This document shows positions 62,497 through 62,719 of a stretch of 64,000 nucleotides of DNA, one piece after another (position 1 is the stretch's first letter; every line of letters begins with the position of its first letter). The DNA comes from a virus (lineage: Duplodnaviria; Heunggongvirae; Uroviricota; Caudoviricetes): IMG/VR virus record IMGVR_UViG_2645727948_000011; one strand, 5' to 3'. Both the position numbers and the translations under genes were made by a program. Under the pieces are notes generated by a model that saw only the letters and a program-made list of their open reading frames with translations, was not told where the DNA came from and searched no databases.

Positions 62497-62524
62497 TGAA
62501 AAAAACGCCCACCCGAAGATGGGC
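62497..62524 (-). terminator. Intrinsic terminator about 185 nt downstream of the operator-overlapped promoter
   Basis: Minus strand GCCCATC-TTCG-GGTGGGC followed by GTTTTTTT. Confidence 0.65.
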
Positions 62525-62688
62525 AAACTGGAAGCTCGTAACGCACTTCGGTGTTGCCACTTAGGCGTATGGTCAACCTGGCAACTCGGCGTCATGAGGG
62601 GGAAGGAGTCACTACCCCGCCATACTTGCCGCCGCGCCTGTCGCGGCTAACAGCTAAATCGCTCTATAAATCACGATTCATTGAGGCG

Positions 62689-62717
62689 ATATTACACTAA
62701 TAAATTTATTAGAGCAA
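62689..62717 (-). promoter_or_regulatory. Sigma70-like promoter (TTGCTC - 17 bp - TAATAT) overlapped by a C1 operator
   Basis: The -35 hexamer lies inside the perfect operator at 62703-62719. Confidence 0.55.
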
Positions 62718-62719
62718 TA
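62703..62719. promoter_or_regulatory. C1 operator (perfect consensus)
   Basis: AAATTTATTAGAGCAAT equals the reverse complement of ATTGCTCTAATAAATTT. Confidence 0.85.

Follow-up and report, generated by a model that had tools for sequence, protein, structure and literature searches.

A putative C1-controlled RNA of P1-family phages with a structured 5′ domain in common with the long form of DicF

The DNA analysed here is a stretch of 64,000 nucleotides (nt) from the virus record IMGVR_UViG_2645727948_000011 (Caudoviricetes), referred to as the window. The element in question is an RNA of about 184 nt that is predicted to start at the C1-repressed ban promoter (Pban) of a P1-family plasmid prophage and to end at an intrinsic terminator. 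Coordinates are those of the window, and the features under study, dmt, the tRNA genes and (in P1 and P7) ban all lie on the minus strand. The promoter, the operator and the terminator are textbook features of P1. New is a widespread structured RNA domain without an Rfam family, located between promoter and terminator, which is also found in the long form of DicF. DicF is a small RNA that blocks cell division and is prophage-borne in most Escherichia coli genomes. We consider it fairly likely that the locus encodes a C1-repressed analogue of long-form DicF, in which the terminator splits transcription between the ~184-nt RNA and read-through into tRNA-ban, and in which the domain influences what becomes of its own transcript.

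According to this reading, RNA polymerase would start near 62682 when C1 is absent, upon infection or induction. A fraction of the transcripts would stop at 62525-62499 and give the ~184-nt RNA. The remainder would read through a tmRNA-like element (tag-RNA, described below), tRNA-Asn and tRNA-Thr towards ban, which is annotated downstream in P1/P7. The 184-nt RNA would be the P1-family counterpart of the 190-nt DicF from the early-left (dicBF) operon of lambdoid prophages. The shared part would be a pseudoknotted four-helix 5′ domain of about 100-124 nt, followed by a short terminator-ending module that in P1 is unrelated to DicF. Features, homology, covarying structure, modularity and context were obtained in this analysis, while the 190- and 53-nt forms of DicF and their dependence on RNase III and RNase E are taken from the literature. 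An earlier note on this DNA had suggested a discrete C1-controlled RNA of ~185 nt, either a leader/attenuator of the tRNA-ban operon or a small regulatory RNA. The discrete RNA is a reasonable inference, supported by the homology to the 5′ domain of 190-nt DicF, and its reading as a repressor-controlled small RNA is plausible, now with what appears from sequence to be a precise homologue.

Homology and structure of the domain

The interval between promoter and terminator was compared with 5426 complete E. coli genomes by sensitive BLAST. Chromosomal matches of ~82% identity to RNA nt 45-142 (window 62646-62549) were found in 4411 of these genomes, at one to eight sites per genome. In K-12, the match is located in the Qin prophage between ydfC and dicB (L003 3001-3097), and the Rfam DicF hit lies 24 nt beyond it (L003 3122-3173, 76.7 bits). 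Judged by the positions of these matches, the P1 interval resembles the segment upstream of DicF and not DicF itself. No match to the Rfam DicF family (RF00039) was obtained in 62400-62760, even at E<=10 (gathering threshold 48 bits), in contrast to the Qin positive control with its 76.7 bits, and membership of the DicF family was rejected on these grounds. Searches of the window and of sub-regions at gathering and permissive thresholds assigned the 184-nt interval to no known Rfam family, and none covers the conserved 5′ domain. Weak matches to RyhB, nuoG and CcsR1 merely reflect the terminator or G/C-rich hairpins.

DicF occurs in a 190-nt form, whose 5′ end is generated by RNase III, and in a 53-nt form resulting from an RNase E cut, both with the same 3′ end (PMC10448788). 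Ragunathan et al. 2023 confirmed earlier work on the two forms (PMC10448788), and they credit the description of long DicF from the Qin dicBF operon to Faubladier 1990. The position 190 nt before the 3′ end of DicF is ~5 nt or less from the point where the conserved segment begins. Since the start of the domain coincides with that of the 190-nt species, the conserved segment makes up most of long DicF. The two RNAs are thus alike in their 5′ domain (~82% identity over 98 nt) and in length (184 nt in P1, 190 nt in Qin). Both have a terminator-defined 3′ end and belong to a repressor-controlled early operon, and both lie upstream of genes annotated by homology as possibly cell-division inhibitory (tciA-type in P1/P7). 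They differ at the 5′ end, which in Qin results from an RNase III cut ~800 nt downstream of the start of a polycistronic mRNA, whereas the P1 RNA would be a primary transcript. They also differ in the closure of the domain. Qin has an outer closing stem, GUUGUGGC/GCUGCAAC, that is not conserved in the P1 family, where a 4-5-bp substitute is present instead; in P1, this is a weak AGCUG/CAGUU closure, accompanied by an own 35-nt leader hairpin. The P1 3′ module is not DicF. It occupies the same slot after the domain and, as in DicF, ends in a Rho-independent terminator, but the UUUCUGGUGA seed is missing.

Copies of the domain were collected from viral contigs (68 distinct versions), from species-representative genomes of Escherichia, Citrobacter, Trabulsiella, Serratia symbiotica, Erwinia and Izhakiella, and from P1-family phages and plasmids. 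A covariance model (R1) was built from 28 sequences, the window sequence among them. R1 matched the window over its full length (62539-62662) with 102.5 bits and E~1e-29. In 98 viral loci it returned full-length copies with 87-148 bits, one copy per locus, and a single 5′-cut copy scored 58 bits. No second, diverged copy was detected by R1 in the window or in ~120 related loci. The BLAST match to Qin (82% identity) supports the domain independently of R1. The domain is kept in 468 plasmid records (>=80% query coverage), and 476 E. coli genomes carry its P1-type version. No proposed function for the domain was found in the accessible literature. A P7-type variant from a metagenomic viral contig (L015 4668-4814) has ~23 extra nt, including a G-run (GGCGGGGGGGGGGGCGACUCCCUGAC), inserted in hairpin b and still reaches 86.6 bits with R1. 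The Qin-type domain together with DicF was also observed in contigs binned as Veillonella parvula and Collinsella metagenome-assembled genomes (L133, L137), which are almost certainly mis-binned E. coli prophage contigs.

The domain comprises an outer stem in the lambdoid versions, hairpins a, b and c, and a pseudoknot (Table 1). In an alignment of 28 diverse, hand-picked sequences, 90.9% of the cells form standard pairs, compared to 33-54% when the partners are slid by 1-3 columns. Pair changes on both sides numbered 14, against 2-6 in the slid controls, and none of 500 shuffles reached the observed values. With a model-based alignment, 95.2% of the cells were paired (37-63% when slid). Hairpin c is found elsewhere as GUUGUCA/UGACAAC, GUAACCA/UGGUUAC or GCUGUCA/UAAUAGC. 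Within the P1 family, the pseudoknot reads GUAUGG/CCAUAC in the P7-type and GCAUGG/CCAUGC in P1, SJ46 and a Klebsiella plasmid, a compensatory U-A to C-G change that was independently recovered by RNAalifold, as was the change in hairpin b. Many unpaired positions of the domain are invariant, and the unpaired nucleotides and the pseudoknot are altogether near-invariant.

Table 1. Positions of the features of the ban promoter region and of the predicted RNA
Feature	Sequence	Coordinates	Strand	Remarks
C1 operator half-site Op72a/Obana	ATTGCTCTAATAAATTT	62702..62718	minus	17/17 match; homologous annotation in P1 and P7
Second C1 half-site Op72b/Obanb	ATTACACTAATAAATTT	62691..62707	plus	2 mismatches; annotated in P1 and P7
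Promoter P1ban		62689..62717	minus	hexamers identical to the sigma-70 promoter annotated in NC_005856
5′ leader hairpin, P1-family-specific	UGAAUCGUG...AGCGAUUUA	62655..62680	minus	~8 bp, -7 kcal/mol; near-invariant in P1-likes
Conserved structured domain shared with the long DicF precursor (R1)		62539..62662	minus	BLAST core 62646-62549; covariation
Hairpin a	GCCGCG-ACAGG-CGCGGC	62631..62647	minus	95% of cells paired
Pseudoknot, 5′ strand	GUAUGG	62620..62625	minus	100% paired
Hairpin b	CGGGG/CCCCG	62598..62619	minus	P1-type CUGGG/CCCAG, compensatory change
Hairpin c	GAGUUGCCA...UGGCAACAC	62551..62587	minus	19-nt loop; 6/9 pairs changed on both sides
Pseudoknot, 3′ strand	CCAUAC	62567..62572	minus	in the loop of hairpin c; pairs with GUAUGG
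P1-family-specific 3′ module	CGAAGUGCGUUACGAGCUUCCAGUU	62526..62550	minus	in the DicF/small-RNA slot; local hairpin -3.8 kcal/mol, z = -0.6
Intrinsic terminator	UGCCCAUC-UUCG-GGUGGGCG + U7	62499..62525	minus	8-bp stem, UUCG loop; scan, folding, conservation

Promoter, terminator and operon context

The region 62030-62760 (minus) is 98.4% identical to phage P7 and 96% identical to P1, and 62497-62720 is 100% identical to many P1-type plasmids of E. coli and Salmonella. By this identity, the locus is the C1-repressed Pban promoter with the Op72 operator of a P7-type P1-family plasmid prophage. It had been noticed before that TTGCTC-17-TAATAT lies over a perfect C1 operator, and this is indeed the annotated P1ban/Op72ab. 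The P1 RefSeq record names exactly TTGCTC/TAATAT as 'sigma 70 promoter P1ban', and the P1 and P7 records both show the operator pair Obanab (former Op72ab) at the homologous position. The operator and the hexamers are identical to those of the P1/P7 ban operator-promoter. The -35 element (62717-62712) and the -10 element (62694-62689), separated by a 17-nt spacer, are inside the operator pair, and the start is predicted near 62682. A generic promoter scan missed the hexamers because they match the sigma-70 consensus weakly (3/6 and 4/6). ATTGCTCTAATAAATTT at 62718-62702 is the sole 0-mismatch C1 operator site in the window, which holds 13 sites with <=3 mismatches where 0.31 are expected by chance. 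Op72b shares 6 bp with Op72a, giving a bivalent operator. The operator had been placed immediately after the dmt stop, whereas operator and -35 element in fact overlap the last two dmt codons and the TAA stop (62711-62709), the minus strand reading GCA ATA TTG CTC TAA TAAATTTATTAGTGTAATATCGCC. Repression by C1 at Op72ab is predicted from the annotation of the P1 and P7 records.

A 'dicF-like region' of 102 bp is already annotated in the P1 record (NC_005856 68791-68892). Its coordinates take in only the 3′ half of the conserved domain and the terminator, and the record assigns neither function nor structure to it. The original sense of 'dicF-like' is inferred here from these record coordinates. 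Promoter, operator and dicF-like label are all in public annotation, and the parts as such are not new. The label had been missed in the earlier note, as had the possibility that the hairpin also terminates dmt.

The terminator, described before as a strong hairpin with a U-tract ~185 nt downstream, is canonical and puts the length of the RNA at about 184 nt from the predicted start near 62682. Its stem (62525-62506) is followed by the U-tract at 62505-62499. The hairpin folds at -12.8 kcal/mol (z = -3.8) and is invariant in P1, P7, SJ46 and plasmids of Klebsiella and E. albertii, and also in D6 despite unrelated upstream sequence. Terminator-like hairpins as a class are not enriched in the stretch scanned (6 found, 3.6 expected), and the case for the terminator is made by the quality and the conservation of this hairpin. 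Transcripts of dmt can be terminated by this hairpin as well, the gene having its end at 62709 on the minus strand, 184-210 nt before the terminator. The interval was rightly said to lack a convincing open reading frame (ORF). On the minus strand, it contains only ORFs of 32-47 amino acids (aa). The 47-aa ORF at 62452-62595 was rejected as a small protein gene, as it spans the terminator and its ATG (62595) is missing in P1-type sequences. Among the minus-strand ORFs examined between promoter and terminator, there was neither a conserved ORF nor a leader peptide.

Downstream of the domain, at least ten different terminator-ending 3′ modules were found. They are ~40-130 nt long, each with a terminal terminator, and include DicF proper, several DicF variants and the P1-specific module (62550-62499 with its terminator). 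At least five unrelated modules occur in prophages of Escherichia, Citrobacter, Erwinia, Serratia and Izhakiella. In P1 and in all lambdoid classes examined, a terminator-ending module is located within about 25-100 nt of the domain. The family is modular, with one conserved 5′ domain and swappable small-RNA modules. Plasmid prophages such as P1 and P7 and many lambdoid phages have this domain in common, as a shared 5′ platform for different small-RNA modules.

In all backgrounds examined, domain and terminator lie early in a repressor-controlled operon, ahead of genes that need transcription. In P1, the domain starts 35 nt past the Pban start. The early-left operon of phage cdtI and related prophages of the Citrobacter/Erwinia type has the domain as its first feature: after the cI terminator come a TTGACA-16-CATAAT promoter, a ~280-nt leader and the domain, then the small-RNA terminator, and only thereafter ORFs through xis, and no N-like gene is annotated in between. 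Qin and mEp460 carry the domain downstream of ydfABC and upstream of dicB and exo/xis/int; in the Qin type, it is located just ahead of the dicF terminator that precedes dicB. Downstream of the P1-type terminator, 470 nt and the tRNA genes are 90-100% conserved. No promoter-like site was found on the transcribed strand at 62498-60500 at the scan threshold, and none is annotated in P1 between terminator and ban. Because the conserved tag-RNA, the tRNAs and (in P1/P7) ban lie downstream with no promoter detected or annotated in between, appreciable read-through seems likely. The tag-RNA follows directly after the U-tract, so the terminator cannot be absolute.

The role of the domain and alternative readings

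We place the functional core of a C1-repressed analogue of long-form DicF in the 5′ domain, because its unpaired nucleotides are near-invariant while the 3′ modules vary. It would most likely act on the fate of its own transcript, that is, on stability, processing or read-through at the adjacent terminator. Several observations speak against this interpretation. No P1 transcript data were found in the searchable literature, and we infer both the accumulation of the 184-nt RNA and partial termination. The whole 186-nt stretch folds no better than shuffled sequences (z = -1.58); as the stability of the whole RNA is not significant, the structure claim rests on covariation, for which the P1-family sequences are too alike at the leader hairpin and the 3′ module. 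A clear single-stranded seed is missing from the P1 3′ module. Complementarity to other phage transcripts, a check proposed in the earlier note, was at chance level, with 11-12-mer counts in the 64-kb window equal to the shuffle expectation. A DicF-like base-pairing role of the P1 module is unsupported. Finally, D6 keeps the terminator, the tag-RNA and the tRNAs without the domain, which shows that the domain is not essential for expressing the downstream part.

Within the 64-kb window, no perfect complement exceeds 13 nt (RNA nt 149-161 with 16759-16771, minus). This 13-nt match sits ~220 nt inside a 349-aa ORF and away from the ribosome-binding site, and the complementarities in the window are treated as chance. 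With the ftsZ leader, the duplex energy of the P1 module was worse than the shuffle mean, by a crude method that does not separate DicF itself from shuffles either. The corresponding D6 locus (L142 1250-1530) lacks both the DicF-type domain and the C1 operator; upstream of its terminator, it carries GGGGGAUAUCCCCAGGGGGAGGCACCCCC, which resembles the 3′ hairpin of STnc100.

The domain might instead be a cis-acting processive antiterminator RNA that folds on the nascent transcript, binds RNA polymerase and lets it pass the adjacent and later terminators. Early phage operons could then open with a terminator-ending small RNA and still be expressed. We regard this as rather unlikely, even though the position of the domain fits in three phage backgrounds (P1, cdtI-type and Qin type), an intrinsic terminator always lies within 25-100 nt of it, and near-invariant unpaired nucleotides with a pseudoknot are what would be expected for binding to a conserved macromolecule. 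There is a precedent in the put RNAs, which are found in equivalent places and need no phage protein (PMC9378689). Like the domain, putL and putR of HK022 are promoter-proximal structured RNAs in an early phage operon upstream of terminators, and they adopt a compact fold with tertiary contacts; a put RNA has ~70 nt, two stems and a triplex, and its antitermination is proven (PMC9378689). The domain has no similarity to putL/putR by sequence or model, R1 finding nothing in the HK022 loci (L005, L126; E<=1), and homology to HK022 put was rejected. In Qin, termination at dicF is efficient despite the domain. The 1146-nt ydfABC-dicF transcript and the 190- and 53-nt DicF, all ending at the dicF terminator, are readily detected, whereas a 1608-nt read-through species accumulates only upon RNase E inactivation (PMC10448788). 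The occurrence of the same terminator and downstream genes in D6 without the domain also argues against antitermination. That the domain, carried by P1-family phages and by prophages of ~80% of E. coli genomes, represents a new class of factor-independent processive antiterminator RNA unrelated to HK022 put is, on our analysis, unlikely.

Another possibility is that the hairpin serves mainly as terminator or insulator of the long dmt unit, the ~184-nt RNA being a functionless by-product and the DicF-related sequence a relic of recombination. The end of dmt lies at a suitable place on the same strand, as given above, a late promoter is annotated in P7 inside the gene (dam in the P7 record), the homology of D6 breaks off exactly at the terminator hairpin, as mosaic joints typically do, and as a seed the P1 3′ module seems to be without function. 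We nevertheless find it improbable. The compensatory changes within the P1 family, U-A to C-G in the pseudoknot and CGGGG/CCCCG to CUGGG/CCCAG in hairpin b, indicate selection on the RNA and not decay of a relic, and the retention of the domain in the plasmid records and E. coli genomes counted above points in the same direction. Very improbable, in our view, is an attenuator or riboswitch, in which an alternative leader fold responding to a ligand, a protein or translation would decide on terminator formation. The architecture of promoter, long structured leader, terminator and operon would suit such a device, and RNAalifold proposed an alternative long-range pairing of the hairpin-a region with the P1 3′ module. 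This pairing leaves the terminator out and is disrupted in the variants from E. albertii and Klebsiella, with no compensating change. Reading the sequence gave no segment complementary to the 5′ arm of the terminator (GAUGGGC-like), and the earlier suggestion of a leader/attenuator in the classical sense gains no support, as no conserved alternative helix competing with that arm was found. Furthermore, there is no leader peptide and no riboswitch family match in the Rfam searches, and other phages combine this domain with unrelated terminators.

A partial parallel to the DicF-like reading is StxS of Shiga-toxin phages, as far as it is described in PMC7547250: a promoter-proximal terminated transcript from PR′ doubles as a regulatory small RNA, and read-through expresses the operon. 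There, the Q protein governs read-through from a constitutive PR′ (PMC7547250), whereas at the P1 locus initiation is controlled by C1. The domain offers a testable handle on two questions, namely the reason for the long form of DicF and the way in which early phage operons deal with a terminator located right at their beginning. P1 would be a convenient test system: a single, cleanly switchable (C1-ts) promoter would yield the RNA as a primary transcript, whose 5′ end requires no RNase III step.

The tag-RNA and other elements of the ban operon region

Directly after the terminator U-tract, at ~62495-62320 (minus), lies an unannotated tmRNA-like element of ~180 nt, the tag-RNA. It is outside the coordinates of the predicted small RNA and is probably the most interesting thing in the region. 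The element recurs in 293 phage records, including P1-likes, D6, T1-like and N4-like phages, Ackermannviridae, and Klebsiella and Aeromonas siphoviruses. In the loci inspected, the element shares its strand with neighbouring phage tRNA genes, which it precedes whenever the stretch examined includes them. The tag frame (62437-62405, GCAAACGAUGAUCUGAUGAUGGUAGCGGCCUAA) reads UAAAU / GCA AAC GAU GAU CUG AUG AUG GUA GCG GCC UAA and encodes ANDDLMMVAA-stop. It begins at GCA, and there is no in-frame start codon. The SsrA tag of E. coli is ANDENYALAA. In 130 instances, the frame always has exactly 10 codons and a stop, with 17 different peptides of the form AN(D/E)(D/E/N)xxxx(A/V)(A/P) and many synonymous variants; ANDDVVLMAA is encoded by seven DNA versions. 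The end of the frame and the stop codon are inside a covarying hairpin, followed by an H-type pseudoknot with the pairs CCGA/UCGG, GUCG/CGAC, CCAA/UUGG and CCAG/CUGG. Neither ARAGORN nor Rfam called a tmRNA at this element, and no clear tRNA-like domain was found in it. A weak 24-bit match to the Rfam permuted-tmRNA family RF04321 has the middle 111 model positions deleted. Published work that searched RefSeq phages exhaustively for ssrA reported it from no phages other than mycobacteriophages and Bacillus phage G (PMC4131195). With its first ~35 nt (62460-62494 minus, GUUUUCGUCAUGGUUAGCGACUUUGCGGCGGUUUA), the tag-RNA is antisense to nt 68-104 of E. coli ssrA, around the resume codon (29/40, gaps included; E = 0.025 when 477 nt were compared with 363 nt), which could be chance or a reflection of internal pairing in the tag-RNA. 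In sense orientation, the 11-mer GUGGAAGCCCU is common to the tag-RNA and E. coli ssrA.

Further along the transcribed strand, ~770 nt at 61106-61879 (minus), between tRNA-Thr and the STnc100-like element described next, hold no convincing ORF on this strand and may be more non-coding RNA. On the opposite strand, P1 has plp and upl annotated, while P7 has nothing. A sub-threshold STnc100-like element was found at 60985-61105 (minus; 37.8 bits, gathering score 47), ~35 nt upstream of a 78-aa ORF starting at 60951. The same weak match is present between dicF and dicB in Qin (L003 3185-3325, 34.1 bits), so the ban operon has counterparts of both non-coding elements flanking DicF. A full STnc100 match is found in Klebsiella phage Menlow (L154 2216-2430, 53.2 bits), ~900 nt downstream of the tag-RNA. 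The 78-aa ORF, which matches no Pfam family above threshold, and a 275-aa SPFH/Band 7 protein (PF01145, E = 1e-30) occupy 59907-60951 (minus) in place of tciA/terB-tciB-tciC of P1, P7 and D6. The gene for the 275-aa protein is followed by a tRNA with the anticodon CAT (59804-59879), annotated as tRNA-Ile2 in P1.

At ~62215-62305 (minus), the window contains a long hairpin with the conserved arms CACAACAGGUAAG.GC... / ...GC.CUUUCCUGUUG and a variable tip, which recurs in many loci, among them L148 4175-4265. Related arms, AGUGCUCU..CGUUGUGG / CACAACAG..AAGAGCA, flank the DicF-associated domain in lambdoid phages and also separate units in the tag-RNA/tRNA arrays of T1-like phages. These recurring arms may mark processing sites, perhaps for RNase III, or the boundaries of cassettes.

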